64,000 nucleotides of DNA, from the NCBI GenBank assembly GCA_902524895.1, contig CABZFH010000002.1, forward strand, positions 74,505 to 138,504, given 5' to 3'. The position numbers and the translations under genes are program-made. The notes beneath the pieces are model-generated. The model worked only from the letters and a program-made list of their open reading frames with translations. It was not told the DNA's origin and made no database searches. How positions within the stretch are numbered: the first letter of the stretch is position 1; each line of letters opens with the position of its first letter. The stretch comes from an uncultured Alphaproteobacteria bacterium (lineage in GTDB: Bacteria > Pseudomonadota > Alphaproteobacteria > Methylaequorales > Methylaequoraceae). Positions 18,985-40,022 of the stretch are shown one piece after another.

Positions 18985-19006
18985 TATTGTCAGAATCCTG
19001 ACAATA
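18985..19006. promoter_or_regulatory. FleQ-type enhancer box (GTCA-N6-TGAC inside a perfect 9-bp inverted repeat)
   Basis: TATTGTCAG-AATC-CTGACAATA, about 80 bp upstream of the fleT sigma54 motif. Confidence 0.75.
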
Positions 19007-19033
19007 AGCAAATTTTAAAAAAAAATTTTACTC

Positions 19034-19046
19034 TAAGCTATTGTTT
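19034..19046 (-). promoter_or_regulatory. Possible IHF site
   Basis: AAACAA-TAGC-TTA, one mismatch to WATCAR-N4-TTR, between enhancer and promoter. Confidence 0.35.
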
Positions 19047-19086
19047 TTTAATATAAAAAAAAAAAAAATTTAAAAAAAAACTTATT

Positions 19087-19102
19087 TGGCCACGTTTTTG
19101 CT
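19087..19102 (+). promoter_or_regulatory. Sigma54 -24/-12 promoter of the fleT-fliEFGHIJ operon
   Basis: TGGCCACGTTTTTGCT (GG-N10-GC). Confidence 0.8.
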
Positions 19103-19136
19103 TTTGTATTTGTAACAACATTAACAGGGTCAAAGT

Positions 19137-20285
19137 ATGAAGGACATAATAATAATTGAAGAATCTTTCCAGAATGCAAAAAATTTAAATGATTTTTTAT
19201 GCAATAGAAAGATTAATAGTCAACTCCAAAAAATAAATGATTTAAAAAAAATCAACTTTCCAAAGTCTGTTTTAATAGGTTCTGAAGGATTAGAAACAAT
19301 GGTTGGTGGAAAAAATAATCTATTTAAACTTTCAAGATCTATAGGTAGTACTAAAATTATAATTCTGAAATCTAAATCTCGAGAGTATAAAATTGAATCG
19401 GAATTGGGTGGAGCCTATAGTAAATATTATTTCCCTAATTTTGATGAATCGATTTATGAATTGTTAATAAATAAAATCTCAGATCAAAAATTTTCATTCG
19501 CTGATCCTAAAACTCATCAATTAATTTATCTAGCAAAAAAAGTTGCTGAAACTGATGTAACTGTTTTTATTCATGGCCCTACAGGAACAGGTAAAGAAGT
19601 TGTATCAAGTTTTATTCATAAAGAATCTAAAAGAAATGAAAAACCCTTCGTTGCTGTAAATTGTGCGGCAATACCTGAGAATATGCTTGAAGCTATGCTT
19701 TTTGGACATGAAAAAGGAGCTTTTACTGGAGCCTCAACTGCTAATAAAGGTATTTTTCGTGCAGCAGATTCAGGAACTCTTCTACTTGATGAAATTTCTG
19801 AAATGCCTTTATCTCTGCAAGCTAAATTGTTGAGGGTTTTACAAGAAAAGAAAGTAACACCAATTGGTAGTCATAGGGATATTTCAGTTGACGTAAGAGT
19901 TATTGCAACAACAAATAGAGATATGGTTAATGAAGTTAAAGAAAAAAAATTTAGAGAAGATCTTTTTTACAGACTGAATGTATTCCCCATTGAGACAACC
20001 AACTTATTTGAAAGACCTGGTGATATAATTCCAATTAGTATTACACTTTTAAAAAGACATGTCGAAAATGGTCAGCAAATACCTTTTCTGACGAAAGAAA
20101 CTCAGGATCTAATAAGAAATTATACTTGGCCAGGAAATGTTAGAGAATTAGAAAATGTTCTTCAGAGAGCATTAGTCCTATCGAATAAAAAGGTTATAAA
20201 TAAAAATGATATTATGATAGACGATATGCTTTACAAAAGTAACACTGAATCAAATAAATTATATAAACAAGCAGCACAAGGATAA
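19137..20285 (+). CDS. fleT: Sigma54 activator without a C-terminal HTH, FleT-like
   Basis: HGPTGTGKE, GHEKGAFTGA, LLDEISE, WPGNVRELEN; ends soon after the AAA+ domain; first gene of the fliE operon. Confidence 0.75.
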   Translation: MKDIIIIEESFQNAKNLNDFLCNRKINSQLQKINDLKKINFPKSVLIGSEGLETMVGGKNNLFKLSRSIGSTKIIILKSKSREYKIESELGGAYSKYYFPNFDESIYELLINKISDQKFSFADPKTHQLIYLAKKVAETDVTVFIHGPTGTGKEVVSSFIHKESKRNEKPFVAVNCAAIPENMLEAMLFGHEKGAFTGASTANKGIFRAADSGTLLLDEISEMPLSLQAKLLRVLQEKKVTPIGSHRDISVDVRVIATTNRDMVNEVKEKKFREDLFYRLNVFPIETTNLFERPGDIIPISITLLKRHVENGQQIPFLTKETQDLIRNYTWPGNVRELENVLQRALVLSNKKVINKNDIMIDDMLYKSNTESNKLYKQAAQG

Positions 20286-20289
20286 AAAA

Positions 20290-20631
20290 ATGGTAAAACC
20301 AAGAATAACAAACCTAACACCAAAAATTGTAGATACACAAAACACAGTTAAAGATCTTCAACAAAAAATTCTTAAGCAGACAAAGGAAACACTTGGCAAC
20401 CAAAACGTTTCAGAGAGTTTTTTAAGAAATTTATCTGAGGCCATACAGAACGTTTCAGATACTCAAAAAAAAAGTGCAGAATTAACTAAAAATTTTGAAT
20501 TGGGTATTGAAAATGACTTAACAAAAGTAATGATACAAAAGCAACTATCAAGCTTAGGTTTTCAAATGACTCTGAATGTAAGAAATAAAGTATTAAGTGC
20601 ATATAAAGATATAATGAATATGCCTGTTTAA
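20290..20631 (+). CDS. fliE: Flagellar hook-basal body protein FliE
   Basis: C-terminal FQMTLNVRNKVLSAYKDIMNMPV. Confidence 0.95.
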   Translation: MVKPRITNLTPKIVDTQNTVKDLQQKILKQTKETLGNQNVSESFLRNLSEAIQNVSDTQKKSAELTKNFELGIENDLTKVMIQKQLSSLGFQMTLNVRNKVLSAYKDIMNMPV

Positions 20632-20651
20632 TTAATTAATGGAAATAAAAA

Positions 20652-22370
20652 ATGGCAGAACAAGTACAAACTACAGACATAAAATCAACAAATACAACAA
20701 CTGGCTCTGGAATGTTAGCTCGAGCTGGTAATGCAATTGAACAAGTCAGAAGATTCTCAAATGAACCAGCAATCCAAAGATCAATACCAGTAATGATTAC
20801 ACTTTTTGTAATTTTTATTGGTATCGTTTTCTTTTTAATGTTTAAAGAATCACCGAGAACAACTTTATTTTCCTCGCTACCAGAAAGTGAAAAGTCGAGA
20901 GTTGTAGAAGTTCTCAGAAATAATGGCATCGATGTTTCGATTGATCCCTCAACAGGAGAAGTTCTTGTTCCATCTCCAGAATATTATGAAGCAAAAATGA
21001 AACTTGCAGCCGAAGGTCTTCCTAGCTCAATTCCTCAGGGTTATGATTTGCTTGAAGAAATTCCAATGGGCACAAGCAGATCTGTTGAATTTATGAAAAT
21101 GAAACAAACACAAGAAATTGAATTATCTCGATCTATTAATCAGATATCAAATATTCTCGGGGCGAGAGTACATCTAGCTATTCCCGAAAAGTCCGTATTT
21201 GTCAGGGAAACGGCTCCTCCAACAGCTTCTGTTTTTGTAAAATTAGCAGAAGGGAGAGTTCTTTCAAAGGAACAAGTAAGATCAATAGTTCATATTGTTT
21301 CATCATCAATTCCATACATGTCGTCTGATAACGTTACCGTGGTAGATCAATACGGTGCTTTACTCTCAAAACCAGAGAATGATGTCGATTCAGCATTAAC
21401 TGAAAAACAACTGAATCATCGACTTAAAATAGAGTCTTTATACAGAGAGAGGATCCTATCGTTAGTGACGCCAATAGTAGGGCCTGGTAATATTACTGCG
21501 CAGGTTAATATTGAAATGGATTACACAAATACATCTACTACTGAAGAAATTGTTGATCCAGAAAGTATAGCTACTCGAAGTGAGCAAAACAGCACTGATG
21601 AATCCACTGATCGACCAGCCAGAGGTGTTCCGGGTGCTGTTGCAAACCAAGCTCCACTAGCAGCTGAACTAGGATTAGATTCTCCAGAACAAGGACAACC
21701 AGCAGAATTTAAGCAAAGATCAACAAGTAATGTTCGAAATTATGAGGTTAGCAAAAAGGTAAATACTACTATAAAAGCTATAGGAAATATTCAGAAAGTA
21801 AAAACTGCTGTCCTTGTAAAAAATAAAATTGTAGAAACACCTGAAGGATTAGTATCTCAACCCATAAGCGACGAAGACAAAGATAAAATTTCATCTTTAG
21901 TAAAAGAAGCAGTGGGATTTGATACTGATAGAGGTGATTCAATAGTAGTTACCAGTGGAGATTTTATTGACGAAATTGATGTTGTGACCACTAAATGGTA
22001 TGAGGAAGCTTGGTTTCAAAATATGGTCGGACAGTTATCAACAGTTTTAATACTTGCTATTATAACTTTTGGTGCACTTAAGCCTTTATTAAATAGAATT
22101 TTGGTTCCATCAGGAGGTCTTTCTGATGGTGTGGTTACAGATTCAGATTTAGAGAGTGATCAAGAAGAGGAGGTAGAAGTTCAAGAGGGTGAATCTTTAG
22201 AAGATATAAAGGCAAAATTAAAGCCTAAAAAGTCTTCAATTTCTCCTGAAATGCTAGATACCGCAAATACTTATGATGATAAAGTAGCAGTTGTTAGAAT
22301 GATTGTAGGAGACGAAGCTGGAAAAATTTCAAACGTTTTTAGACAATTACTTCAAAAAGATTCAGATTAA
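20652..22370 (+). CDS. fliF: Flagellar MS-ring protein FliF
   Basis: Two TMs, GYDLLE...GTS, EIELSRSI, ARVHLAIP, VPGAVANQ, RNYEV, GFDTDRGD. Confidence 0.97.
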   Translation: MAEQVQTTDIKSTNTTTGSGMLARAGNAIEQVRRFSNEPAIQRSIPVMITLFVIFIGIVFFLMFKESPRTTLFSSLPESEKSRVVEVLRNNGIDVSIDPSTGEVLVPSPEYYEAKMKLAAEGLPSSIPQGYDLLEEIPMGTSRSVEFMKMKQTQEIELSRSINQISNILGARVHLAIPEKSVFVRETAPPTASVFVKLAEGRVLSKEQVRSIVHIVSSSIPYMSSDNVTVVDQYGALLSKPENDVDSALTEKQLNHRLKIESLYRERILSLVTPIVGPGNITAQVNIEMDYTNTSTTEEIVDPESIATRSEQNSTDESTDRPARGVPGAVANQAPLAAELGLDSPEQGQPAEFKQRSTSNVRNYEVSKKVNTTIKAIGNIQKVKTAVLVKNKIVETPEGLVSQPISDEDKDKISSLVKEAVGFDTDRGDSIVVTSGDFIDEIDVVTTKWYEEAWFQNMVGQLSTVLILAIITFGALKPLLNRILVPSGGLSDGVVTDSDLESDQEEEVEVQEGESLEDIKAKLKPKKSSISPEMLDTANTYDDKVAVVRMIVGDEAGKISNVFRQLLQKDSD

Positions 22371-22390
22371 TGTAATATTAAGGAAAGAAT

Positions 22391-23431
22391 ATGGCAGAAC
22401 AAGTAGATCAAAATGAAGAAGAATTAACGGCTTACGAAAAGTTATCAAATACGCAAAAATGTGCAATTTTAATGATGCTTTTGGGTGAAGATGAAGCGGC
22501 AGAAATTTTAAAAAATTTAGGTCCTAAAGAAGTTCAACAATTAGGAAAAGAGATGTATACTGTCCAAGGATTAGATCAGGATACTGTTAACCAAGTTTTA
22601 GACGAATTTTTAGCTATTATCAAAACCCAAACAGACCTAGGAATGGGATCTTCGAATTATATCAGAAATGTTATGACAAAAGCACTGGGTGAGAATAAAG
22701 CTCAATCAGTTTTAGGAAGAATAACACCCACAGAAAGTGACAAACCAATTGAAATTTTGGATTGGATGGATGCTAGGTCTGTAGCAGAACTAATTTCAGA
22801 CGAACACCCTCAGATTATGTCTCTAATAATTTCTTACTTGGAAGCAGGAGTTGCTGCAGACGTTTTAGTTTTGCTGCCCGAAGAAATACAGGCTGACATA
22901 ATTCATAGAATAGCAACACTAGAAACTGTTCAACCTGACGCACTAGCAGAGCTAGAAAGGGTAATGCAGTTAAAATTTAAAACAAACACATCATTAAGGG
23001 CTTCATCCGTTGGAGGTGTGAAGGCTGCAGCTCAAATAATGAATTTCACTAAACAGAATATGGAACAAAGAATTGTGAAAAGTCTAGGTGAAAAAGATAG
23101 ACTTTTAGCTAAAGAAATTCAAGAGAGTATGTTTACATTTGATACTCTGATACTTATGGATGACCGAAGTATGCAAACATTATTAAGAAATGTTGATCAA
23201 GAAGTTTTAATTATTGCTTTAAAAGGAACAGAAGAAGACTTAAAAAAGAAGATTTTTTCATGTATGTCTCAAAGGGCTTCAGCTAATATACAGGACGAAA
23301 TGGAAGTCCTAGGTCCATTGAGACTAACAGAGGTTCAAGAGGCACAAAAAGCTATCATTAATACCGCTAGGACAATGTCTGACGAGGGATCAATCGTCTT
23401 AGCTGGAAGAGGTGGGGATGATTTTGTATGA
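22391..23431 (+). CDS. fliG: Flagellar motor switch protein FliG
   Basis: KCAILMMLLGED, EHPQ, GGVKAAA, MFTFD, GPLRLTEVQEAQ. Confidence 0.97.
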   Translation: MAEQVDQNEEELTAYEKLSNTQKCAILMMLLGEDEAAEILKNLGPKEVQQLGKEMYTVQGLDQDTVNQVLDEFLAIIKTQTDLGMGSSNYIRNVMTKALGENKAQSVLGRITPTESDKPIEILDWMDARSVAELISDEHPQIMSLIISYLEAGVAADVLVLLPEEIQADIIHRIATLETVQPDALAELERVMQLKFKTNTSLRASSVGGVKAAAQIMNFTKQNMEQRIVKSLGEKDRLLAKEIQESMFTFDTLILMDDRSMQTLLRNVDQEVLIIALKGTEEDLKKKIFSCMSQRASANIQDEMEVLGPLRLTEVQEAQKAIINTARTMSDEGSIVLAGRGGDDFV

Positions 23432-24642
23432 TACAACAACAAGAAAAAATCAAAGAAGATTCTGAGGCAAATGAATCTCCTCTTAACACTGAAGAAATTT
23501 TAAGTATTTTAAATAAAACAAAAGAATTAAATTTTCTAAAAGAAAATAAAATTTTTGAAAACTTTTCTTCAGAGTTTAGAAGCTTAAATTTAGAAGAAAT
23601 TGCAAAAAAAAATAATAGTGAATCAATCACAACTCAAAAAATTGAAAAAAATATTGATGAAAAAGTTCAAAAAGAACTTAATACATCGTTACAGGTAAAA
23701 AAGGAAAATAATTTAGAATCTGAGAAAATCATTATCGATGAAGAAGAACTAAAAAGACAAGAAAAAATTTATACACAAGAACAGCATGATAAACTAGTTA
23801 ATGATGCTAAAGAAAAAAGTTTTAAAGAAGGAATTCAACAAGGCTTTGAGCAAGGAGAAAAAAATATCAAAGATGAGTTACAAAAAGGAGAGGAAGCTCA
23901 GGCATTAGCACTTAAAAACACTATTGATAATTTGTTTTATGTGGCGCCGAAATTTTTAGAGAAATTAAATCTAACTATAAACGAATCTATCAGAGACATT
24001 TGCAATCAAATTTTAGGATATAAAATATCTGAAATGCCAAAACAATTTTTAGAAAAAATTAATAATTTAGTTTCATCAATAGAAAGTTCATCAAATAGAA
24101 TTGTAGTATTTTTAAATGTAGAAGACCAAAAAGTTCTCAACGAATTTTTGAAAAGTAATAAGACTCTTGCTGATGTCACTTTTAAAATTGATGAAACACT
24201 TCAAAGAGGAGATTTAATAATAAAATCAGGTGGTATTGAAATAAATGATATTTTATCAAAAAAGGTTGATTTAATATCTGACTCAAATATAGATAAAAAT
24301 CTTAAAGAGTTAGCAAATGAAAATTCTGCTAAAATAGAAAATGCTAAAATCAATAATGATGATCAGGATCTTGAAGTTAAAATTGAAGCTAAGAATGATA
24401 AAATTCAACAAAGAAAAGAAGATATCCAAAGTAAATTAAAAACTGAATTTATTGAAAATTCAAATATTCTTTCAGACCCCAAACATTCTGAAAAAACTAA
24501 TGAAGACAGTAATTTTAAGGAAAAACTTTCTGATAAAATTGATGAAATGGGCGAAAAGACACAAAAACAAGAATTAGAGGAAGAAAAGTCTCTGAACGAA
24601 ATTAATGCATCACAAAAAAATGATGATAAATTAACCAATTAA
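23428..24642 (+). CDS. fliH: FliH with long N- and C-terminal charged extensions
   Basis: GxxxG repeats (KEGIQQGFEQGE), DETLQRGDLII; lies between fliG and fliI. Confidence 0.82.
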   Translation: MIQQQEKIKEDSEANESPLNTEEILSILNKTKELNFLKENKIFENFSSEFRSLNLEEIAKKNNSESITTQKIEKNIDEKVQKELNTSLQVKKENNLESEKIIIDEEELKRQEKIYTQEQHDKLVNDAKEKSFKEGIQQGFEQGEKNIKDELQKGEEAQALALKNTIDNLFYVAPKFLEKLNLTINESIRDICNQILGYKISEMPKQFLEKINNLVSSIESSSNRIVVFLNVEDQKVLNEFLKSNKTLADVTFKIDETLQRGDLIIKSGGIEINDILSKKVDLISDSNIDKNLKELANENSAKIENAKINNDDQDLEVKIEAKNDKIQQRKEDIQSKLKTEFIENSNILSDPKHSEKTNEDSNFKEKLSDKIDEMGEKTQKQELEEEKSLNEINASQKNDDKLTN

Positions 24643-24646
24643 TAAA

Positions 24647-25966
24647 ATGTCTTTAATTATACAAAAAATACAACACAATATTCAGAATTACAAAACTAAT
24701 GATGACGTAATTTACAAAGGAAAAGTATCGAAATTTGACGGAAAAATTGTCGAATGTGATGGTTTTCCAGTTCCTATTGGTACGATCTGTAAGATTGAAA
24801 GTAACGATGACAAAACTGTTACTGGTGAGATTATTGGTTTTAGAGATAACAAAAACCTTTTGGCCGTTCATAATCAAAATGCAAACATTATAGCAGGAGC
24901 AATTGTTGAAGTTATTGATTCAGGCGTAAATATAGAAGTTGGAGAAAATTTATTAGGAAGAGTAATTGATGCCTTCGGAAACCAAATAGATGGGAAAGAT
25001 TTGATAGTTGGAAACTCAAAATGGCCTATTAATGGAAAAAATATTAATCCTATGAATAGAAAGCCTATAAATGAACCAATAGATGTAGGGATTAAAGCAA
25101 TAAATTCTTTATTAACAGTTGGAAGAGGACAAAGAATTGGTATTATTGCTGGTTCTGGAGTCGGTAAATCAGTACTTTTGGGAATGATGAGTAGATTTAC
25201 AAATGCTGACATAGTTGTTGTAGCTTTAATTGGTGAAAGAGGTAGAGAAGTAGGGAGTTTTGTTAATCAAATTTTTAATGATAGTGCCAAAAAAAAAACT
25301 TCAATAGTTGCTGTTCCAGCAGACATGTCTCCCCTACTAAGAATTAGAGGAGCACAAAGAGCTACCTCGATAGCAGAGTATTTTAGATCAAAAGGTAAGA
25401 ATGTACTTTTAATAATGGATTCTTTGACGAGAATTGCACACGCAAAAAGAGAGGTGGGTCTGGCTCTGGGAGAACAACCTACATCAAAAGGTTATCCACC
25501 TTCAGTTATCTCAATGCTACCAAATTTAATTGAAAGAACTGGGGCTGGCAGCAAAAATGAAGGTTCTGTTACCGCTTTTTATACTATACTAGCTGATTCA
25601 GATGATACTAACGATCCGGTTGTTGATACTGCGCGTGCTATTCTTGATGGACATATAGTATTATCAAGAGAACATGCGCAAATGGGAATTTTCCCAGCAA
25701 TTGATATCAATCAGTCATTAAGTAGAGTTATGAATTCAATTGTAGACAAGAAACATAAAGACAAGGCAAATTTCATTAAAAAGCTTTATTCATTATATAT
25801 GGAAAATAGAGAACTAATTCTGATGGGTGGATATACATCAGGTCAGAATGAGGATATTGACAAAGCGCTCAATAATTGGCCTAAGATTTGCAATTTAATA
25901 AAGCAAGCAGAGGACGAACGAACAAATTTCAATGACAGTCTTAACAGTATGAATAATATAAATTAA
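24647..25966 (+). CDS. fliI: Flagellar export ATPase FliI
   Basis: AGSGVGKS, LIGERGREV, MDSLTR, KGYPPSV, ILDGHIVLSR. Confidence 0.97.
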   Translation: MSLIIQKIQHNIQNYKTNDDVIYKGKVSKFDGKIVECDGFPVPIGTICKIESNDDKTVTGEIIGFRDNKNLLAVHNQNANIIAGAIVEVIDSGVNIEVGENLLGRVIDAFGNQIDGKDLIVGNSKWPINGKNINPMNRKPINEPIDVGIKAINSLLTVGRGQRIGIIAGSGVGKSVLLGMMSRFTNADIVVVALIGERGREVGSFVNQIFNDSAKKKTSIVAVPADMSPLLRIRGAQRATSIAEYFRSKGKNVLLIMDSLTRIAHAKREVGLALGEQPTSKGYPPSVISMLPNLIERTGAGSKNEGSVTAFYTILADSDDTNDPVVDTARAILDGHIVLSREHAQMGIFPAIDINQSLSRVMNSIVDKKHKDKANFIKKLYSLYMENRELILMGGYTSGQNEDIDKALNNWPKICNLIKQAEDERTNFNDSLNSMNNIN

Positions 25967-26374
25967 ATGAACAGCAAAAAATTTAATATTTTATTAAAAC
26001 TTAAAAAACTTAAAAAAAACAAATCCCTCAGTAGTCTCACTTTCTTAATTAAAGAAAAAAAAAAACTCTCAAAAATTAGTGAAACATTAGAAGAAATGCT
26101 AAAAATTTCAAATTATCCAAAAAACGAGATTTTGAGTACAGGTTTGTTGAAACAAATTTCAAATTATCAAGAAAAATTACAAAAAAAATTGGAAACTTCA
26201 AATAATAGAAAAAAATATCTTTCATCTGAAATTTCAACAAATCTTAAACATATTTCTGAATTAAATAAGCAGACAGAGATAATTAAAGAAAAAATTTTTG
26301 AGCTTGAAAAAGAGCAAGCTAATTTAAAAGAAAAAAATGCTGAAATAAATATTTTTAATAAATCATCGATTTAA
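25967..26374 (+). CDS. fliJ: Putative FliJ (coiled coil)
   Basis: 135-aa predicted coiled coil directly after fliI; assigned mainly by position. Confidence 0.65.
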   Translation: MNSKKFNILLKLKKLKKNKSLSSLTFLIKEKKKLSKISETLEEMLKISNYPKNEILSTGLLKQISNYQEKLQKKLETSNNRKKYLSSEISTNLKHISELNKQTEIIKEKIFELEKEQANLKEKNAEINIFNKSSI

Positions 26375-26386: not shown

Positions 26387-26402
26387 TGGCATTGGATTTG
26401 CA
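26387..26402 (+). promoter_or_regulatory. Sigma54 promoter of fliKLMN
   Basis: TGGCATTGGATTTGCA (GG-N10-GC). Confidence 0.8.
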
Positions 26403-26414
26403 GATTTAAGCTAA

Positions 26415-29801: not shown

Positions 29802-29815
29802 GTCAAATACTTGAC
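29802..29815. promoter_or_regulatory. FleQ-type enhancer box upstream of fliO
   Basis: GTCA-AATACT-TGAC, about 76 bp upstream of the fliO sigma54 motif. Confidence 0.7.
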
Positions 29816-29849: not shown

Positions 29850-29862
29850 AATCAGTATCTTA
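29850..29862 (+). promoter_or_regulatory. IHF site between enhancer and fliO promoter
   Basis: AATCAG-TATC-TTA matches WATCAR-N4-TTR, preceded by an A-tract. Confidence 0.5.
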
Positions 29863-29890: not shown

Positions 29891-29906
29891 TGGCCATGTT
29901 CTTGCA
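29891..29906 (+). promoter_or_regulatory. Sigma54 promoter of fliOPQR-flhB
   Basis: TGGCCATGTTCTTGCA (GG-N10-GC); SD AAGGAG follows. Confidence 0.82.
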
Positions 29907-32136: not shown

Positions 32137-33291
32137 ATGGCAGAAGATAAAGATGAAAGTCAGGAAAAATCCCAAGCACCTAGTTCACGTAAATTAGAAA
32201 AGGCTGCTGAAGAAGGAAGGGTTGTTCAATCTAAAGAAATGTATGTTTTTACTATTCTTTTTGCAGGAGTATTCCTAATGTACTCGTTACCTTTGGTAGT
32301 AAATGACTTTTTGATGAGTTTAAAATCATTTTTACAATTTGGACCAGAATTGAGAAATGGGCACTCTCCTTTGAAATCAATTGAAACAGCAATTAAAATG
32401 GTTGTAAAAATAACCATCATATTTGGTCTGCCATTATGTGTGGTTTGCATTTTAACTCAATATGCTGTTGGTGGTGGTATAAGATTTTCCTTTAAACCAA
32501 TGGAACCTAAATTAAGCAAGATTAATCCAATAAGTGGTTTAAAAAAAATTTTTTCAATTAAAGGACTAATAGAGTTATTTAAAGCTTTAATTAAAGTTTT
32601 CTTCCTTGGAGGAATAACAATTTTTGTTTTTAGTGAATATCTTCCAGAAATAACGCACCTTTCTCATCCAAATCTTTTTTCTGCTTTAAAAAAGCTATTA
32701 TCTTTTTTTCCAATACTTCTAGCTGCTCTACTAGTGGGCTTAGCAGTTATTGGTGCGATAGATTTTGCTTGGCAAAAATATGATTTTATAAAACAACTAA
32801 GAATGTCTCATCAGGATATTAAAGATGAGTATAAAGAAACAGACGGTCAACCAGAAGTTAAACAAAAAATTAGAAAACTTCAAATGCAAGCAGCTAATAA
32901 AAATAATAGAGAAAATGCTTCAATTGAAAATATGGATAAGGCCACTGCTATCATAACCAATCCAACTCATTTTGCAGTTGCTTTACAATATGAGGTTGGA
33001 GAATCTGATGCTCCCAAAATCATAGCAAAAGGACGTGGAAAAATTGCTGAAAGAATCATAGATGAGGCAAAGCTAAGAAATATTGGAAAATTGGAAAGTC
33101 CAGACTTAGCAAGAGCACTGTATTACACAACAGAAATTGGAGAAGAAGTTATGAGTAAACTATATAATGCAGTAGCAATAGCCTTGGCTTATATTTATAA
33201 AATTAATAGTGGAGAATCAATTGAAAAACCATTAATTAATATACCTGAAGAACTAATATTTGATGAATTTGGAAATCAAAATGATAAATAG
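32137..33291 (+). CDS. flhB: Export switch protein FlhB
   Basis: RMSHQDIKDEYKETDGQPEVK, NPTH cleavage motif, PDLARALY. Confidence 0.98.
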   Translation: MAEDKDESQEKSQAPSSRKLEKAAEEGRVVQSKEMYVFTILFAGVFLMYSLPLVVNDFLMSLKSFLQFGPELRNGHSPLKSIETAIKMVVKITIIFGLPLCVVCILTQYAVGGGIRFSFKPMEPKLSKINPISGLKKIFSIKGLIELFKALIKVFFLGGITIFVFSEYLPEITHLSHPNLFSALKKLLSFFPILLAALLVGLAVIGAIDFAWQKYDFIKQLRMSHQDIKDEYKETDGQPEVKQKIRKLQMQAANKNNRENASIENMDKATAIITNPTHFAVALQYEVGESDAPKIIAKGRGKIAERIIDEAKLRNIGKLESPDLARALYYTTEIGEEVMSKLYNAVAIALAYIYKINSGESIEKPLINIPEELIFDEFGNQNDK

Positions 33292-33493
33292 AAATATAAG
33301 TCAATTAATTATAACTTTTGCATTTTTTTACAGCTTCATTGTTTGCCATCTTGAAGCATTGGAAAAATACCAAAGAGGAGATTTTGTTATGAGTTATATC
33401 TTGTGGATATGCGCTTTATTTTCTTTTTTAGGTGCTTTGAGATTTAGGATAGCAAAAATAATTAATAGTTTAATAAAAAAAAAAGATGAATAA
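33281..33493 (+). CDS. Small hypothetical two-TM protein
   Basis: ATG overlaps the flhB stop; two hydrophobic stretches; overlaps the next ORF. Confidence 0.55.
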   Translation: MINRNISQLIITFAFFYSFIVCHLEALEKYQRGDFVMSYILWICALFSFLGALRFRIAKIINSLIKKKDE

Positions 33494-33704
33494 ATTCTCA
33501 GAAGATTGTAAAATATGCAAACATTTGTATGTGACTTATAAACCAAATTTTCCTTGGGGTTGTCGTGCATTTGGATTTATTTCAAAAAATTACCCTTATT
33601 CTCTTGTTTATAAGACTTCTGGCATGAAATGTGCGTTATTTTCAATGAACATTAAAAATAATAATAATGAACGAAAAGATAAAAAAAAAGGGAGACTTGC
33701 ATGA
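33486..33704 (+). CDS. Small four-cysteine protein of unknown function
   Basis: CKICKH...FPWGCRAFGF...SGMKC pattern; translationally coupled on both sides. Confidence 0.7.
   Translation: MNKFSEDCKICKHLYVTYKPNFPWGCRAFGFISKNYPYSLVYKTSGMKCALFSMNIKNNNNERKDKKKGRLA
33620..33635 (+). promoter_or_regulatory. Candidate internal sigma54 promoter for the MotF-like, hypothetical and RRF-like genes
   Basis: TGGCATGAAATGTGCG (GG-N10-GC), 66 bp before ATG 33701. It lies inside coding sequence and could be coincidental. Confidence 0.45.
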
Positions 33705-34426
33705 ATAATGATTTGAATACAATGCAGGAAAGTATTAAAATAGCCTTGGATGCTGCAGATGCTGCAACTGACGTTACTTCAGAATATAAAAGAATGAAAA
33801 ATGAATATATTAAAGCGGAGCAAAAAGTGAAAGAAATTCATAAATATACGACTATTATCTTCTCGGCTTCTATTGGTACAGCAATTGTGGCTATTTTACT
33901 AACAGGAGTTTTATATTTCAAATCTTTATCAGAATTGGAGGAAATGACAAATACCAGCCGTGAAGCACTTGTAGTATTTGCGGAAAACGTTGAATCTGTA
34001 AATAGTGCAGTTGACAATATGAATAGAAGTCTTGAAAAACACTCAGATTTAGTTAACGCAAATGCAGAAATAAAGAACAAGCTCTCAGAACTTACCTCTG
34101 CTATTGCGCAGAATGATAAAAATCTAATGGTAAGTTTGTCGAAAGAGATATCAAATCTATCAAAGTCTGTTTCAACTTCAATCAAAGTAGAAGCAGGTAA
34201 GTTGAGTTCTAATATTCAAGAAGGTGACATATTGACATCTGCTAAAATTAGTAAAGCAATAGATAAATTGATTTCTGATAATAAGAAAAATTCAAATGTA
34301 AAAATGTTAAAAGAATTGTCAAATTCTACTTCAAGTTTAACAACAGCCTTAAAAGCCATTTCCTCTCAAAATAAATTGCTTGTTAAAGAAATAACTGAGC
34401 AAAAAGAAAGTATAACTTTTCCTTAG
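33701..34426 (+). CDS. Single-TM coiled-coil protein, probable MotF-like fla1 motor accessory
   Basis: 241 aa, one TM at about residues 51-73, downstream of flhB. Size, topology and position fit my recollection of R. sphaeroides MotF; not verified by search. Confidence 0.55.
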   Translation: MNNDLNTMQESIKIALDAADAATDVTSEYKRMKNEYIKAEQKVKEIHKYTTIIFSASIGTAIVAILLTGVLYFKSLSELEEMTNTSREALVVFAENVESVNSAVDNMNRSLEKHSDLVNANAEIKNKLSELTSAIAQNDKNLMVSLSKEISNLSKSVSTSIKVEAGKLSSNIQEGDILTSAKISKAIDKLISDNKKNSNVKMLKELSNSTSSLTTALKAISSQNKLLVKEITEQKESITFP

Positions 34427-34434
34427 ATATTTCG

Positions 34435-35241
34435 ATGAATAATGAGTCTATAGAAGTAACCGATCAAAAAAAGTTACAAGAAAATCAAGGTTTTCTTCTT
34501 AAAATTGAAAGTATTAGAAGGAAAACTCATTCTTTTTCTCTTATGCTAAAAGAAGACGATATCATCGTCGCACTTAACAATCAATTTTATGTGACTGGGG
34601 AGAATCAATTGATCGATGAGTTAATTGAACTTCGGAAAAATAATGATAAAGCAATACTGACTATTAAAAGAGATGAATATTTTTTTGATATAATTGTAAG
34701 AAATAGTCTTGGTTGTAAATTTTCAAGTTTATCTTTAGAAGAAACAAAAAATATTCAAACGCAATTTGCCACTAAGAAAGTTTTTGATATTGAAGAAATG
34801 AGAGAATTCAATATTTTTAGAGATTTGAAAAATAACTTTGAATGTATAGAAGATACCTTTTCAATAGTTGCAGGGTTATTTCCTCCAGCTTGGTTAGCAT
34901 ATGAACAAAAATGGTGGGTACTTAGTTTTTTCTCAATTTTCAGTTTGCTTTTACTGTCTATAAACCCATGGATTTTTGCAATTGGTTGGATAATAGTTTC
35001 AATTTATTGTTATAAAGCTCAAAAAAATCTGATCTTTGGATTTACATTGCTATCAGGCAAAGCTCTGTCAATGAAAATCGCTGCAACTAGCATTCACGAA
35101 GCTCATAAAATTATTAGATACTTTTATCCAAAGTCCAAATTTAAATATTCTAGATTAGATAGTCCTCAAATGGTTGAGGGAGAAGATAATTTTAGTAAAG
35201 ATAAAAAAAATATTTCTGAAACTGAAAATGCTTTGATATAA
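34435..35241 (+). CDS. Hypothetical membrane protein, possible PDZ-like N-terminus and DUF2628-like TM region
   Basis: LKEDDIIVALN...LTIKRD resembles PDZ; LFPPAWLAYEQKWW precedes TM helices. Confidence 0.5.
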   Translation: MNNESIEVTDQKKLQENQGFLLKIESIRRKTHSFSLMLKEDDIIVALNNQFYVTGENQLIDELIELRKNNDKAILTIKRDEYFFDIIVRNSLGCKFSSLSLEETKNIQTQFATKKVFDIEEMREFNIFRDLKNNFECIEDTFSIVAGLFPPAWLAYEQKWWVLSFFSIFSLLLLSINPWIFAIGWIIVSIYCYKAQKNLIFGFTLLSGKALSMKIAATSIHEAHKIIRYFYPKSKFKYSRLDSPQMVEGEDNFSKDKKNISETENALI

Positions 35242-35247
35242 TAAGTT

Positions 35248-35844
35248 ATGGCCGAACAATACTCTATTCAAGCTGAAACTCTAATGAAAGCTGCTGTTGA
35301 AGATTACTTAGAAATCATAAAAACAGTCCAGTCTTCCAATGCAAATATGGCTGTTATTAAATCTGTCAAGGTTACAATTAATGGAAAACCAAGAAGATTA
35401 GTAGATATTGGAGACCTAAGAACAGGAGAAAATGATAATAAACTTCAGGTCTTAGTTTTTAATACAGATCATATTGAATTGCTTGTTGATCAAATTAATG
35501 AAGCGGGTTTTGAGACTAATGTTGATGGTCAATTTGTTAATATTGATGTGCCTGATCCAACTTTTAAACAACTTATGGAGGTAGTTGACGATCTTCAAAG
35601 GAAAAAAAACTCCGCACTTGGAAGACTTACAAAAGCCAAATCAGAAGCCACAACCAGGGCTCGAACCGCTGTTGAAAATGAGTTTATTGAGCAAGCAGTA
35701 GCGAGTCAGGCCTCTAAAAAATGTGATGTTTTTTTTGGACAGTATTCTGACGAAATTAATTTACATACAACGACAAAAATTAAAGAAATACTCGGAGATG
35801 AATTTTACGCAAAGTTCGAAGAAGAACAAGCTATGTTTGATTAA
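35248..35844 (+). CDS. Divergent ribosome-recycling-factor (RRF) fold protein, not the housekeeping Frr
   Basis: Manual alignment to E. coli Frr holds along the whole length, but the IRTGRA, TEERR and RNVRR motifs are replaced. Confidence 0.75.
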   Translation: MAEQYSIQAETLMKAAVEDYLEIIKTVQSSNANMAVIKSVKVTINGKPRRLVDIGDLRTGENDNKLQVLVFNTDHIELLVDQINEAGFETNVDGQFVNIDVPDPTFKQLMEVVDDLQRKKNSALGRLTKAKSEATTRARTAVENEFIEQAVASQASKKCDVFFGQYSDEINLHTTTKIKEILGDEFYAKFEEEQAMFD

Positions 35845-35846
35845 GT

Positions 35847-36542
35847 TTATGCCTTAATACTTAAAGAATTTTTAACTTTTGCTGTATCTTTGTTTGTATT
35901 GTAAAAACTTCGTATTTGAGAAAAATTAAACATTTCTAATCTTCTCACTTTATCTGAATCTTCTTCAAAGTTTTTCTTTGGGTAGTTGAATTCCAATATA
36001 CGACCATTTTTCTTAAAAACTTTTGAATTTTGATGATTACTTTCAAAGCTTTTCGTTTCGGGAAAAATATTTCTTAACTCTTCTTTACTATTATTTTCTT
36101 GAACTTCTTGGGTAGACAATTTATTAGTTTGAGTGATTTTTTTTTTATCATTTAAATTTGCAACTTCTGTATTTTCTTTTTCTTTCCAAATTTTACTAAT
36201 TCCAGTAAACTCTAAAAATAATTCTGTCGGTGTACTGTCAAATAATTTATTAAAAATCCAGTTACCAACCCCAGCTATTGCACCTATTGGCCCTCCATAG
36301 AGAAAGCCTCCTAACCCGTTTTGAACCATATCTCTATCTGAATCCTTGTTTTCAGAATTAATGCTGGAATATATACCGCTAATTAATGGCAAATTTTGCA
36401 AAGGATTGATTGCCCCTTTAATCCATTTCAAAAAACTAAAGGTTGAGTCTTCATTATTTTCTTTTAAATTTTTTTTGCTTAATGAAATTTTTTCATTATC
36501 AAGTTTTTTAGAATGGTAAAATGGACTCTTTTCTATAAACAT
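35847..36542 (-). CDS. Conserved-looking alphaproteobacterial hypothetical protein
   Basis: INPLQNLPLISGIY...GGFLYGGPIGAIAG motif; starts 6 bp downstream of motB. Confidence 0.65.
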   Translation of the reverse strand: MFIEKSPFYHSKKLDNEKISLSKKNLKENNEDSTFSFLKWIKGAINPLQNLPLISGIYSSINSENKDSDRDMVQNGLGGFLYGGPIGAIAGVGNWIFNKLFDSTPTELFLEFTGISKIWKEKENTEVANLNDKKKITQTNKLSTQEVQENNSKEELRNIFPETKSFESNHQNSKVFKKNGRILEFNYPKKNFEEDSDKVRRLEMFNFSQIRSFYNTNKDTAKVKNSLSIKA

Positions 36543-36548
36543 TTTTCT

Positions 36549-37727
36549 TTAATAATTTATTTCAATTTCTATTCTTCTGTTTTTTTCTCTACCTTCTGAA
36601 GTGTCATTTGAACCTAATGGTTGCGTTTCACCATAGCTAATTGCCTTCATTCTTTTTGGTTGAAGTTTACCTGTAGATGATAATTCCTGAACAACAGATG
36701 AAGATCTAGCCGCTGCTAAATCCCAGTTATCTCTATATATTGATCCAAATATTAATGGTGTATCATCAGTATGACCTGACACTAAAATTTCACTTTTACC
36801 TTTTTTATTGAGGTCGGCAATTTTTGCCATAATTTTCTTAGCTTTAGATGTTAATTCGGCAGAGCCAGATTTAAACGCACCACCTGAACCCACTGTTATG
36901 ATTACTTTATCTTCATCTCTGTCAACATTAATCAAGCCTTCTCCAATTTCTTTTCTAAGAGCTATTTTAAATTTATCTTCTGCTATTTGAGCTTTTTTTT
37001 CTTCTTCTTTAGAAATGTCTGGAGATTCTCCAATATTGTTTCCATCTGAAGATTCAGATTCTAGCTTTCCTTTACTGGCTGCAGCTGTCGCTAATTGAGC
37101 AAGTTTCTGTTCTAAGCCACCAAACAAAACTTCTGATTCTGATTTTCCAGACGCAGACTTTACTGTTTCTATTGAGTTAAGAGTTTCTTGCAGTAAATTT
37201 GGTAAATCTTTTTCCTCAGCTTCAAGCGGAGTGAAATTTACAATTACTTTATCTGCTAATACCTCAACCTCAATATCACCCCTAGCAATAGCATCTTTTA
37301 TATTTTGTGCTAATTCTGTGGCATCCTCGTTTTGTCCATCATCTTTGGTATTATCTTGAGTTTTAGTTTTAAGCTCAACATTCTTTTGATCAGTTTCAGT
37401 GGTCTGCTGTTTTAAGTTTTCTTGCACGGCCGGCGTTGGATTAGGACTAAAACTTAACGATAATAATGTTGTCCCTTTAGGTTGTTCAACAACTGGAATT
37501 ATCCTTTGAATACCAAATGCATTTTTCATGCTTCCACTAATTTGCTTGAATTTAGGAACATTAAATTCTGCGAAAGAAAGAATTAAGACGAAAAATGCCA
37601 TCAACAATGTTGCCATATCTGCAAAAGTTGCCATCCACGCAGGGGCACCTTTTGGAGGACATTCTGGGCATTCGTGTTCCTCTTCATCTTTAGTTTCTTT
37701 TTTTTTTTCTTCTTTTTCCTCAGCCAT
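36549..37727 (-). CDS. motB: Flagellar stator B subunit (PomB/MotB-like)
   Basis: WMATFADMATLLMAFFVLILSF TM with the conserved Asp; OmpA-like domain GHTD...NWDLAAARS...NRRIEI. Confidence 0.95.
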   Translation of the reverse strand: MAEEKEEKKKETKDEEEHECPECPPKGAPAWMATFADMATLLMAFFVLILSFAEFNVPKFKQISGSMKNAFGIQRIIPVVEQPKGTTLLSLSFSPNPTPAVQENLKQQTTETDQKNVELKTKTQDNTKDDGQNEDATELAQNIKDAIARGDIEVEVLADKVIVNFTPLEAEEKDLPNLLQETLNSIETVKSASGKSESEVLFGGLEQKLAQLATAAASKGKLESESSDGNNIGESPDISKEEEKKAQIAEDKFKIALRKEIGEGLINVDRDEDKVIITVGSGGAFKSGSAELTSKAKKIMAKIADLNKKGKSEILVSGHTDDTPLIFGSIYRDNWDLAAARSSSVVQELSSTGKLQPKRMKAISYGETQPLGSNDTSEGREKNRRIEIEINY

Positions 37728-37750
37728 TTATCTTTTATCTTTCCTGTAAT

Positions 37751-38518
37751 TTATGCCGCAGCCTCTATTAGTTTTTGTTTTTCTTTTGGAGGAAGATTAG
37801 CAACAAGTTGATCTTGAATGTTTCTTCCACTTTCTCCTCGAGAAATTAACTGTAAGCCGGTAATTATCATTTCTCTATAAGTCACTTCATAAGTTGTGTA
37901 GCCTTTCATTTTCACAACAATTGGCATAAAAATAGTGTTTGCAATCATAGCTCCATATAGAGTGGTCAAAAGGGCAACGGCCATTGCAGGCCCAATAGCC
38001 TTTGGGTCAGCCATGTTACCTAACATTGCTACTAATCCAACTAAAGTTCCAATCATGCCCATTGCTGGCGCAATATCAACCCAAGCTTGAGCAACTCCAG
38101 TTGATTTTGCATGTCTACCTTGCATCGCTTTTAATTCTTTTTTTAATTGTATGGTTAATTTCTCTTCATCAGCACCATCTACAAGCATCTGCAAACCACT
38201 ATCAAAAAATGGATCTGGGGTTTCTTGACCTTCAAGAGCCATCATTCCATCTTTTCTGGCTATTCCAGCGAGCTCAACTATTCTGGTGATTAATTCGTCC
38301 ATTTTTTTAATAGGCGGTTTAAAGGCTTTAGCCATAGCCCCGAATGACCCTAAGAAAAGTGGTAATGGCGCAGTATACATTACAGCGAAAAATGTTCCAC
38401 CAAAAACAATTAAAATTGAAGGTATGTCAACGTACATACCTATTCCGCCTGCAGAAACCATTGCACCTGCGATCATACCTATAGTTCCTAAAAGTCCAAT
38501 GAGTGATGCTATATCCAT
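37751..38518 (-). CDS. motA: Flagellar stator A subunit, short PomA-like type
   Basis: ARKDGMMALE, APAMGMIGTLVGLV, IGPAMAVALLTTLYG; 255 aa. Confidence 0.96.
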   Translation of the reverse strand: MDIASLIGLLGTIGMIAGAMVSAGGIGMYVDIPSILIVFGGTFFAVMYTAPLPLFLGSFGAMAKAFKPPIKKMDELITRIVELAGIARKDGMMALEGQETPDPFFDSGLQMLVDGADEEKLTIQLKKELKAMQGRHAKSTGVAQAWVDIAPAMGMIGTLVGLVAMLGNMADPKAIGPAMAVALLTTLYGAMIANTIFMPIVVKMKGYTTYEVTYREMIITGLQLISRGESGRNIQDQLVANLPPKEKQKLIEAAA

Positions 38519-38569
38519 AATTTATTTTCCATTAATTATTTTTAATTTATATATATATTTATAATATCT

Positions 38570-38585
38570 TGGTATAAAAACTGCA
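38570..38585 (+). promoter_or_regulatory. Sigma54 promoter facing the DUF1566 gene
   Basis: TGGTATAAAAACTGCA (GG-N10-GC); shares its -12 GC with the motA promoter. Confidence 0.55.
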
Positions 38586-38597
38586 ACTTTGATACCA
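38582..38597 (-). promoter_or_regulatory. Sigma54 promoter of motAB
   Basis: Minus strand TGGTATCAAAGTTGCA (GG-N10-GC). Confidence 0.75.
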
Positions 38598-38655
38598 AAG
38601 TAGTAAAAATTTATTATTTAGTAATTCAAATATATTTATCGTATTATTAAATTCT

Positions 38656-39165
38656 ATGAAAAAAAAACAAAATCATATCATTAATAAAATTAAAATACTT
38701 TGTATTTTTTCTATTATTACAACACTCAATTTTTTGTTTAGTCATAATCTTAAAGCCAGAGATTACATTGATAAGGGACATATTGTTATTGATCTAAAAA
38801 ATAAAGTTGAATGGCTTAAATGTTCAGTAGGACAAGTTTGGGATACTGAAAAATGTACTGGTGATTCAATAAAAGTTTCCTTAAAAGAAGCTGAAGATTT
38901 GTTACCACAAGTAAATCAAGAACTTGGAGGTGAATGGAGACTACCTAATAAAAAAGAATTAGTAAGTATTATTTGTAAAATATGTTCCGGTGCGAAAATA
39001 AATGAAACTTATTTTCCTAACTCTCAAGCTGATATTTATTGGACATCACAAAGAAATTGGTGGTCTCCTCAATTTTTCTGGTCAGTTAATTTTATGACTG
39101 GTCATGCTTATGGTAGATTCGTTCCAGAAAAAAAATTATTCGTCAGATTTCTCAGAGACAGATGA
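38656..39165 (+). CDS. DUF1566 (Lcl C-terminal domain) exported protein
   Basis: DLKNKVEWLKCSVGQVW...WRLPNKKELVSII...FP...YWTS...WSVNF...G...VR. Confidence 0.85.
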   Translation: MKKKQNHIINKIKILCIFSIITTLNFLFSHNLKARDYIDKGHIVIDLKNKVEWLKCSVGQVWDTEKCTGDSIKVSLKEAEDLLPQVNQELGGEWRLPNKKELVSIICKICSGAKINETYFPNSQADIYWTSQRNWWSPQFFWSVNFMTGHAYGRFVPEKKLFVRFLRDR

Positions 39166-39381
39166 TTTTTGTTTTGTAAAATATTGAAAAATTTTTCCGA
39201 TAAAAACTAAAATTCCAACAGATAAAATTGCTATAGCTACATTCCATGAATTAATGTATGCTAAAAGATGGAGTTTATCTGTGAGCGTAAATGAAACAAT
39301 TATTAAAAATAAAACTGAAATCAAAAAAACTCTCAGAAAAAAACACAATCTACAGTTGTTTTCTTTATCTTTGTATGACAT
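39136..39381 (-). CDS. Small two-TM hypothetical protein
   Basis: Two hydrophobic helices; overlaps the end of the SPOR gene. Confidence 0.5.
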   Translation of the reverse strand: MSYKDKENNCRLCFFLRVFLISVLFLIIVSFTLTDKLHLLAYINSWNVAIAILSVGILVFIGKIFQYFTKQKSSVSEKSDE

Positions 39382-39907
39382 AGCAATCTATCTCTTTTGA
39401 TCTTGAAAATTTACACGTCTGATTAACATTTTCTTCGGAATCGGAATCAAACTTAAGAAAATAAATTTTTTTTTTTTCACTATATTGTATTTTTGATTCA
39501 AAAAAATCAAATTTTGGTTTAATAATCATATCAACTTTATTTTTTAATGTTTTAGCACCAATTTCTTTTGAAAAAGCTCCAAATTGGACAGAAAATTTCT
39601 TAGTAAAAATTTTATCATTTAGTTTTTTTTTTTGTGATAATTTACCATCAAAATTATTGTTTTCAGTACTAAGATTCTCTTTAATATCTCCTTCAACTTT
39701 TTTTTCAATACCAACTTCCTGTGACTTCTCTTCAAAAATAATACCTTTCTTGGAGTAAATATTAATTTTATCTTGATTTTTAGAATTTAAGTCTGGTTCT
39801 AAAGTTAAAGATGAATTTAAATCTTTTTTTTGTGTCAAATTATCAACTTGCAATAAAAAAAACCCTGTTAAAAAAAAAATTGCAAATATTGGTAATATCT
39901 TTAGCAT
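39365..39907 (-). CDS. SPOR-domain protein
   Basis: N-terminal anchor, linker, then FSVQFGAFS...AKTL...C..C-type SPOR domain. Confidence 0.75.
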   Translation of the reverse strand: MLKILPIFAIFFLTGFFLLQVDNLTQKKDLNSSLTLEPDLNSKNQDKINIYSKKGIIFEEKSQEVGIEKKVEGDIKENLSTENNNFDGKLSQKKKLNDKIFTKKFSVQFGAFSKEIGAKTLKNKVDMIIKPKFDFFESKIQYSEKKKIYFLKFDSDSEENVNQTCKFSRSKEIDCYVIQR

Positions 39908-40008
39908 TACTTAATAATAACATTAAAAAATATTTAAAAGTAGTTTTTTTCCTAGAAATCTGGCTTTTTTTATTTTCAATTTTTTAAAGATATAATTTAT
40001 AAAAGTTA

Positions 40009-40022
40009 GTCATTTTTTTGAC
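40009..40022. promoter_or_regulatory. FleQ-type box upstream of rpoN, overlapping a possible sigma70 -35
   Basis: GTCA-TTTTTT-TGAC; TTGACG at 40018-40023 then TAGTTT after 18 bp. Confidence 0.55.

Follow-up and report, generated by a model that had tools for sequence, protein, structure and literature searches.

The 64,000-nucleotide stretch of DNA analysed here (the window; C2:74505-138504, C numbers denoting contigs) belongs to a 1.43-Mb assembly of 29% G+C in 27 contigs, 84.5% complete, from an uncultured marine alphaproteobacterium, and it carries a flagellar gene cluster in which the 14-bp pseudopalindrome GTCA-N6-TGAC recurs in three intergenic regions. We propose, with a probability of roughly 0.7, that these boxes and a fourth one elsewhere on the same contig are operators of the flagellar master regulator FleQ, and that these four sites would mark, family-wide, the early class of promoters in a sigma-54 cascade in which FleQ acts first and a second activator, FleT, acts later. 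Judged by the sequence comparisons set out below, the boxes themselves are real, conserved cis-regulatory sites; from them we infer FleQ binding, the order of activation and feedback repression of fleQ and of rpoN, the gene for sigma-54. Cascades of this kind are already known, and what sets this case apart is the proposed operator at its only rpoN gene and possibly a late tier that lacks enhancers.

In the window, fleQ on the minus strand is divergent from fleT, which is followed by fliEFGHIJ, fliK, fliLMN, box 2 and fliOPQR-flhB; 3' of flhB lie three unknown genes, motAB (minus strand), a gene with an Lcl_C domain, a SPOR-like gene, box 3 and rpoN. Because of the matches of FleQ and FleT, the gammaproteobacterial nearest homologues and this gene order, the flagellar system is of the gamma type, of the Rhodobacter sphaeroides Fla1 kind, in a streamlined marine alphaproteobacterium. 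A crude call of open reading frames (ORFs) makes 94% of the genome coding, with an intergenic share of 5.7%. The boxes and the regulatory genes are the following.
17869-18948, minus strand: fleQ, sigma-54 activator with the Pfam domains Sigma54_activat, AAA_lid_14 and HTH_8, without an N-terminal REC/FleQ domain.
18989-19002: box 1, GTCAGAATCCTGAC, between the divergent fleQ and fleT, 40 nt 5' of the fleQ start codon; predicted FleQ enhancer for the fleT promoter (PfleT).
19137-20285, plus strand: fleT, FlrC/FleR-like AAA+ activator without a helix-turn-helix (HTH; Pfam finds the AAA+ domain only), heading fleT-fliEFGHIJ.
29802-29815: box 2, GTCAAATACTTGAC, between fliN and fliO, 5 nt 3' of the fliN stop codon; predicted FleQ enhancer for the fliO promoter (PfliO).
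40009-40022: box 3, GTCATTTTTTTGAC, 77 nt 5' of the rpoN start codon; its right arm gives a -35-like TTGACG (40018-40023).
40100-41551, plus strand: rpoN, the sole sigma-54 gene found in the assembly (single match in a tblastn search with RpoN; assembly 84.5% complete).
C2:22363-22376, outside the window: fourth box, GTCAAAAAAATGAC, in the flhA leader, between flhA and the divergent LPP20-lipoprotein/flgA/flgM operon.

Boxes 1 to 3 had been named in a preliminary description of the window made from its letters alone, and they proved to be its only exact matches, where 0.33 would be expected; none of 100 dinucleotide-preserving shuffles of the 64 kb reached three in the same pattern search. That description had also placed box 1 in a perfect 9-bp inverted repeat, which is TATTGTCAG-AATC-CTGACAATA, and had called all three boxes intergenic, which holds given the fleQ start at ATG 18948 that alignment with the homologues of relatives indicates. 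The genome-wide scan that it had suggested as a check showed that the motif is not frequent: the 1.43 Mb hold seven boxes in total against about ten expected from base composition. Four of the seven are intergenic, versus 0.32 expected from shuffled intergenic DNA (P ~5e-4), and each of the four is at a flagellar locus or at rpoN. The other three boxes, which are coding (in flgE, a sugar-modification gene and mtnP), were considered as regulatory sites and discarded, having no link to a promoter. Single-mismatch variants show no intergenic enrichment (9 of 236 genome-wide), and no such variant stands at the other flagellar promoters, the two flagellar clusters of the source genome yielding scattered coding matches only.

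Conservation was examined in 24 genomes of the same family, representing at least 14 genera, whose FleQ proteins are 70-79% identical to the one here; the family members found among the FleQ homologues include the single-cell genome AG-911-L17 ('uncultured Alphaproteobacteria'). The exact box is present in 20 of the 20 fleQ-fleT spacers for which that DNA is available, with invariant GTCA and TGAC arms in an alignment of 63% mean column identity. At rpoN each of 18 genomes has an exact copy, always 77-79 nt 5' of the start codon, and the flhA leader has one in 18 of 18 relatives, 13-26 nt 5' of the start codon. All 21 fliN-fliO spacers carry G[TC]CA-N6-TG[AG]C, ten of them exactly, nine with GCCA and two with TGGC. 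The alignments around the four boxes have 54-63% mean column identity, spacers and flanks drifting, and relative to the flanks the arms bear the mark of purifying selection (invariant at three loci in 18-20 genomes, one arm base variable at fliO). Spacers are A/T-rich in nearly all of the 78 aligned box sites, and since their bases vary and the arms never covary between genomes, the pattern fits a palindrome recognised by a protein rather than an RNA stem. No further conserved site was found among the exact boxes listed in five near-complete relatives; those with an A/T spacer were inspected and are coding or at unrelated genes.

An independent check came from 35 gammaproteobacterial fleQ/flrA loci, contrasted with 44 loci of other enhancer-binding proteins (EBPs). 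The box occurs in 19 of the 35, against about two boxes expected in total, and in only one of the 44. It lies 14-70 nt after the fleQ stop codon in seven gammaproteobacterial loci and 314 nt after it in an eighth, and all eight have a sigma-54 promoter 50-103 nt further on, which is the promoter of the next-tier regulator. Boxes that follow the fleQ/flrA stop and precede the next sigma-54 promoter are seen in Vibrio, Photobacterium, Methylococcaceae and Porticoccaceae. Six loci have the box 88-179 nt upstream of fleQ, a position that suggests widespread autoregulation by FleQ. In the alphaproteobacterial family studied here fleQ and fleT are divergent, so that one box fills both the upstream and the post-fleQ position.

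Next to box 1 the genome encodes the matching regulator, a FleQ/FlrA orthologue with a Fis-type HTH. Its best match among solved structures is Pseudomonas aeruginosa FleQ (8p53, E = 3.4e-85), in an alignment that extends through the HTH, and its nearest homologues outside the family are gammaproteobacterial FlrA/FleQ proteins with 43-46% identity. All family members have the same recognition helix, LKINRTTLIEKMKK, which is near-identical to the (R/Q)RTTLVEKMRK of gammaproteobacterial FleQ/FlrA. FleT is closest to Vibrio cholerae FlrC (4qhs, E = 1.7e-79), with about 120 residues N-terminal of the AAA+ domain that have no Pfam match. The Pseudomonas FleQ consensus, which is bound by an HTH dimer, is given as GTCaNTAAAtTGAC for P. 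aeruginosa and GTCAaAAAAtTGAC for Pseudomonas putida in PMC6120874 and PMC10723142, which cite Baraquet and Harwood (2016). Arm conservation, the FleQ orthologue with its recognition helix, the boxes at gammaproteobacterial fleQ genes and the layout of upstream activating sequence (UAS), integration host factor (IHF)-like site and sigma-54 promoter described below together support the earlier suggestion that the boxes are functional FleQ-type sites, and we predict with good confidence that FleQ is the protein that binds them.

Three other accounts of the boxes were weighed. That the three matches of the window arose by chance in AT-rich intergenic DNA would agree with the unremarkable genome-wide total and with the flat distribution of single-mismatch variants, but it is at odds with the intergenic enrichment and is refuted by the positional conservation of the arms at four of four loci in about 20 genomes; the shuffles and the conservation together rule it out, and we give it practically no credence. 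A different transcription factor might bind the boxes, whose likeness to the Pseudomonas FleQ consensus would then be superficial: the information content of a 14-bp palindrome with 4-bp arms is low, and the family has two further HTH-bearing EBPs, NtrC-like and NtrX-like, on C4. This is improbable, given that the four conserved sites belong without exception to flagellar or sigma-54 genes, that two of them show, together with an IHF-like site, the geometry canonical for EBPs and one has a downstream position typical of FleQ, that FleQ is the sole HTH-bearing EBP of the flagellar island, and that the box accompanies many gammaproteobacterial fleQ/flrA orthologues and hardly any other EBP locus. 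Slightly less probable again is that the boxes act mainly as -35 hexamers of sigma-70 promoters (TTGAC, facing outwards), or as small hairpins in leader RNAs, rather than as activator sites. Each arm does contain TGAC, the rpoN box has yTGACn 17 nt before a TAnnnT hexamer, and at flhA and fleQ the box is 13-40 nt from the start codon, within the 5' leader or close to it. A -35 element, however, does not account for a second arm that four loci keep invariant and exactly 6 nt away; a stem of 4-5 bp lacks the strength expected of an RNA element, its arms being invariant without ever covarying; and the fleT and fliO boxes, about 100 nt 5' of a sigma-54 promoter with an IHF-like site between, have the geometry of enhancers.

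Several points nevertheless weigh against FleQ operators of an early class. Chromatin immunoprecipitation sequencing (ChIP-seq) in Pseudomonas shows that the consensus alone predicts FleQ occupancy poorly (PMC6120874). The first arginine of the Arg-Arg pair of P. aeruginosa FleQ, modelled as contacting the G.C ends, is an asparagine in the FleQ described here; gammaproteobacterial FleQ proteins with glutamine at this position still have boxes. Its control may differ from that of the Pseudomonas protein, as it lacks the REC-like domain. For repression of fleQ the Pseudomonas analogy is made less compelling by P. putida, whose fleQ promoter shows no autoregulation (bioRxiv 10.1101/2021.08.29.457346), and with an assembly 84.5% complete a further box could be missing.

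The layout around the boxes bears on how FleQ would act, the elements at fleT and fliO being these.
19034-19046, minus strand: IHF-like site of fleT, AAACAATAGCTTA, one mismatch to the IHF consensus WATCAANNNNTTR, in a conserved TAAG..TTG island between box and promoter.
19087-19102, plus strand: PfleT, sigma-54 promoter, TGGCCACGTTTTTGCT; TTGGyAAnnTTyTTGCTT is invariant in 20 genomes.
29850-29862, plus strand: IHF-like site of fliO, AATCAGTATCTTA; TCA....CTTA is invariant in the fliN-fliO alignment.
29891-29906, plus strand: PfliO, sigma-54 promoter for fliOPQR-flhB, TGGCCATGTTCTTGCA; yGGCAAgnTTCTTGCAT is conserved in 21 genomes.

A gap of 76-85 bp between box and sigma-54 motif had been read from the sequence at the outset and is accurate: counted from the box ends it is 85 nt at PfleT and 76 nt at PfliO. 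Counted from the box starts, PfleT begins after 98 nt here and after 107-111 nt in relatives, and PfliO after 89 nt here and mostly after 76-78 nt in relatives. The exact IHF consensus stands in the fleQ-fleT spacer of several relatives, and the family consensus of the fliO island, AATCAATAACTTA, equals it; the source genome departs from the consensus by one base at each of the two promoters. It has three HU/IHF-family genes, which score under the himA cut-off, and the conserved islands are putatively assigned to IHF. PfleT and PfliO would accordingly be read as having the classical layout of enhancer, bend and -24/-12 promoter. The flhA box lies 72-104 nt 3' of a conserved flhA sigma-54 promoter and 110-155 nt 5' of the divergent sigma-54 promoter of the operon that runs from the LPP20 gene to flgA and flgM. 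The boxes share with FleQ operators both the motif (14-bp GTCA-N6-TGAC with an A/T-rich spacer) and the position, upstream or downstream of a sigma-54 -24/-12 element, and their dependence on FleQ is predicted; PMC6120874 describes FleQ as acting from upstream or downstream sites.

In the mechanism that we propose, the REC-less FleQ would bind the boxes as an HTH dimer. Between fleQ and fleT, box-bound FleQ would loop over the approximately 100-110 nt to the RNA polymerase holoenzyme with sigma-54 (E-sigma54) at the promoter, helped by an IHF-like bend, and from box 1 would switch on FleT together with the genes for the membrane/supramembrane (MS) ring and export (fleT-fliEFGHIJ). The same layout between fliN and fliO would drive fliOPQR-flhB, and the flhA box would represent the 'atypically downstream' FleQ arrangement known in Pseudomonas. 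At rpoN the box would overlap the -35-like element of a putative sigma-70 promoter. Promoters without a box, namely those of fliK-fliLMN, flgB, motAB, one flagellin gene, the SLT gene and others, would form a later class that needs the HTH-less FleT, with FleQ or alone.

In cluster maps drawn for ten relatives, synteny is complete and the sigma-54 promoters form a constant set. Boxes accompany PfleT, PfliO and PflhA plus the divergent LPP20/flgA-operon promoter; conserved promoters without a box number at least five, being PfliK, that of a 241-aa gene, PmotA with its overlapping divergent partner and that of a small gene convergent with rpoN, to which the source genome adds those of the SLT gene, flgB, a rod gene and a 517-aa flagellin gene. 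Four entries in the window are as follows.
26387-26402, plus strand: PfliK, box-less, TGGCATTGGATTTGCA, conserved in 11 genomes.
33620-33635, plus strand: promoter before the 241-aa gene, box-less, TGGCATGAAATGTGCG, conserved in 11 genomes.
38570-38597: divergent overlapping promoters, box-less, of motA (minus strand) and the Lcl_C-domain gene (plus strand), TGGTATAAAAACTGCAACTTTGATACCA.
42440-42455, minus strand: promoter before a gene with an SLT domain (Pfam), box-less, TGGCATTTGAATTGCA, from the motif scan.

The preliminary description had seen no box near the fliK, motA and SLT promoters, and none is there at up to one mismatch. Across 10-11 genomes the fliK, 241-aa gene and motA promoters are free of boxes at this threshold from -300 to +150, with the exception of one single-mismatch coding match at the 241-aa gene in one genome. 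The two sets also differ in what they encode: the box-bearing operons specify the export gate (FliOPQR, FlhB, FlhA), the MS ring, FliG and ATPase genes (FliFGHIJ) and the regulators FleT, FlhF, FleN and FliA, and the box-less ones FliK, FliLMN, rod and hook, the stator and one flagellin. The split, kept in the 10-11 genomes, corresponds to class II and class III of Vibrio and Pseudomonas and to early versus later functions, the later ones comprising hook-length control, C-ring, rod/hook, stator and one flagellin. It also agrees with R. sphaeroides, in which fleT is turned on by FleQ alone (PMC7277832, PMC10084136), and by comparison it supports the two-tier hierarchy of promoters that had been suggested earlier. 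The early set had been given as the fleT and fliO operons; both appear to be early, but the set was incomplete, as flhA-flhF-fleN-fliA and probably the divergent LPP20-flgA-flgM operon should be added.

Several features of the sigma-54 promoters themselves deserve mention. The -24/-12 spacers differ by class, with GGyAAGnTTyTTGC at fleT (19087-19102) and fliO (29891-29906) and GGCAyyAnATTTGCA at box-less promoters (26387-26402). The fliK promoter (26387-26406) and that of the 517-aa flagellin gene (C13:16815-16830) share 20 identical bases, TGGCATTGGATTTGCAGATT, and because of these one of the several flagellins appears to be sigma-54-dependent, like Vibrio flaA. The motA and Lcl_C promoters form a palindrome, TGGTATAAAAAC-TGCA-ACTTTGATACCA, whose -12 TGCA is common to both, so that E-sigma54 could bind in one orientation at a time; the minus-strand motA promoter is kept in 10 of 10 relatives and its plus-strand partner in six of ten. 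A 61-aa ORF convergent with rpoN (41548-41777) has a conserved sigma-54 promoter of its own, TGGCACGTAAAATGCA; relatives have ORFs of 66-76 aa there, and no family match was found. Finally, all relatives have a sigma-54-like motif, TGGCCTAAGATTTGCA, at the 3' end of fliI (25877-25892), 74 nt before fliJ, which may mark an internal promoter or reflect no more than conservation of the coding sequence.

If the boxes are FleQ sites, the box-less tier may nonetheless be independent of enhancers, with the HTH-less FleT activating E-sigma54 from solution and without a FleQ tether, a reading that would supersede the step with FleQ plus FleT suggested in the preliminary description. FleT has no HTH by Pfam, three box-less promoters lack a box across the genomes and range given above, and the overlapping motA and Lcl_C promoters share a 137-nt intergenic region with no space for an upstream site. 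FlgR of Helicobacter and Campylobacter, which has no DNA-binding domain, activates independently of enhancers. Against this, in R. sphaeroides, the only FleQ/FleT system that has been studied, FleQ alone activates PfleT and the remaining promoters are activated by FleQ/FleT, FleT needing FleQ in a hetero-oligomer that binds UASs (PMC7277832, PMC10084136); neighbouring coding sequence may also contain a FleQ/FleT motif that is degenerate or of another kind. We regard activation from solution as a minority possibility. Just as tentative is a minimal cascade in which DNA tethering would set the tier: the four boxes would define an enhancer-dependent early class, later promoters including the motA palindrome would be fired by FleT from solution, and FleQ would feed back on the sole rpoN through an operator that overlaps its promoter.

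Repression of fleQ and rpoN by FleQ, which had been suggested for boxes 1 and 3, is plausible from position. Across the family box 1 is 16-40 nt from the fleQ start codon, and for this reason must lie within or just downstream of the fleQ promoter; inspection by eye for a sigma-70 promoter of fleQ gave only weak candidates, such as TTGATT with the box in the spacer, which were set aside. At rpoN the right arm of box 3, yTGACn, is followed after 17 nt by a hexamer like TAAAAT, TAAAGT or TATAAT in most genomes, a spacing that points to overlap with a putative sigma-70 promoter. A dual role of the box, as an operator overlapping a promoter, is likely at both genes. In P. putida a FleQ box that overlaps a sigma-70 promoter represses PbcsD (PMC6424431). 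Two further features lie in the rpoN leader. One is an invariant block beside box 3.
40034-40051, plus strand: GTCAAATT-N4-TTTTGC in 18 of 18 genomes, containing a third GTCA half-site.
As a sigma-54 promoter this block was rejected, its spacing being 4 nt too long and GG being absent. The other is TGT(C/G)AAATTAnAAT, present twice about 32 nt apart (40033-40081), possibly tandem promoters or extra half-sites.

Box 1 of the source genome does contain GAATC (18993-18997), as had been noted, and methylation of this GANTC site by CcrM had been considered. The site is not conserved: three of the 20 genomes have it (the source genome, G002 and G015), and the other 17 have GAAAA, GAAAC or GAAAT. No CcrM-type methyltransferase gene (PF01555) was found in the source assembly, which is 84.5% complete, in a search that detected the Caulobacter control, and PF01555 is absent from 12 of 14 relatives; methylation of box 1 by CcrM is not supported.

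The arrangement combines traits of several known systems. The boxes share with those of Pseudomonas FleQ the 14-bp pseudopalindrome with GTCA and TGAC arms and an A/T-rich spacer, and the sites are placed alike, upstream of sigma-54 promoters (fleSR there, fleT here) or downstream of them (flhA in both); repression is possible there where a site overlaps a sigma-70 promoter, as at PbcsD and pel. The regulator has the AAA+ domain and the Fis-type HTH of Pseudomonas FleQ, its recognition helix being almost the same, and a FleN-like gene follows flhF. It differs in the missing N-terminal REC-like domain and in the replaced arginine, and the host, an AT-rich uncultured marine alphaproteobacterium, has only four conserved sites, no sign of a biofilm regulon, and one site at rpoN.

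With the Fla1 system of R. sphaeroides it shares an alphaproteobacterial host with a gamma-type flagellar set, an rpoN gene associated with flagellar genes, an HTH-less FleT that is the first gene of fleT-fliEFGHIJ and adjoins fleQ (by ORF order and Pfam), and divergent sigma-54 promoters of flhA and an operon containing flgA. Pena-Sanchez and colleagues are said to have placed, in 2009, the R. sphaeroides UASs downstream of both the flhA and the flgA-operon promoters. Unlike in that species, the FleQ-type box stands at no fewer than three to four operons here rather than at fleT alone, and the class III promoters there have mapped FleQ/FleT UASs, whereas the box-less ones here are without a recognisable FleQ site. 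R. sphaeroides FleT is described as having no N-terminal domain (PMC10084136), and in this respect the FleT studied here, with its N-terminal region of about 120 aa, does not conform.

As in the FlrA-FlrBC-FliA cascade of V. cholerae, the FleQ/FlrA-dependent class II would comprise MS ring, export apparatus and regulators, and hook, rod and one flagellin would be under a second EBP, the one here being closest to FlrC, that acts at sigma-54 promoters; the 517-aa flagellin gene here has a box-less sigma-54 promoter, and the flrA loci of Vibrio and Photobacterium have the same box before the flrB promoter. Unlike in V. cholerae, no FlrB/FleS kinase gene lies between fleQ and fleT, and FleT has no DNA-binding domain, whereas FlrC binds DNA. 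FleT is like FlgR of Helicobacter and Campylobacter in being an AAA+ activator without an HTH for middle flagellar genes, but FlgR is a phosphorylated response regulator that acts alone and FleT has a DNA-binding partner in FleQ.

Other observations concern neighbouring genes. On the 3' side of flhB (33260-33704) two small ORFs of 77 and 72 aa are kept in 10 of 10 relatives, and the second contains the sigma-54 promoter at 33620. A degenerate paralogue of ribosome recycling factor (35248-35844; frr model, E = 8e-6, far under the cut-off) is the last gene of a sigma-54-driven three-gene unit within the flagellar cluster. Outside the window, the hook protein FlgE (C2:29048-33691) has 1547 aa, several-fold the usual length.

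In Pseudomonas the definition of FleQ sites has been difficult, with ChIP-seq peaks and consensus in poor agreement, and the family described here offers a very clean natural example, with four conserved sites in genomes of 1.1-2 Mb and no further conserved one in five near-complete relatives. Taken together, the family sites and the recurrence of the box at gammaproteobacterial fleQ/flrA genes support GTCA-N6-TGAC as the ancestral operator of the FleQ/FlrA family. The findings raise the questions of whether a flagellar master regulator controls the sole sigma-54 gene and whether an HTH-less second activator works without enhancers, and for an abundant group of uncultured marine Alphaproteobacteria they supply a flagellar regulatory map that can be tested. 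If the minimal cascade is true, feedback on rpoN would couple the supply of sigma-54, which NtrC and NtrX use too, to the flagellar programme.

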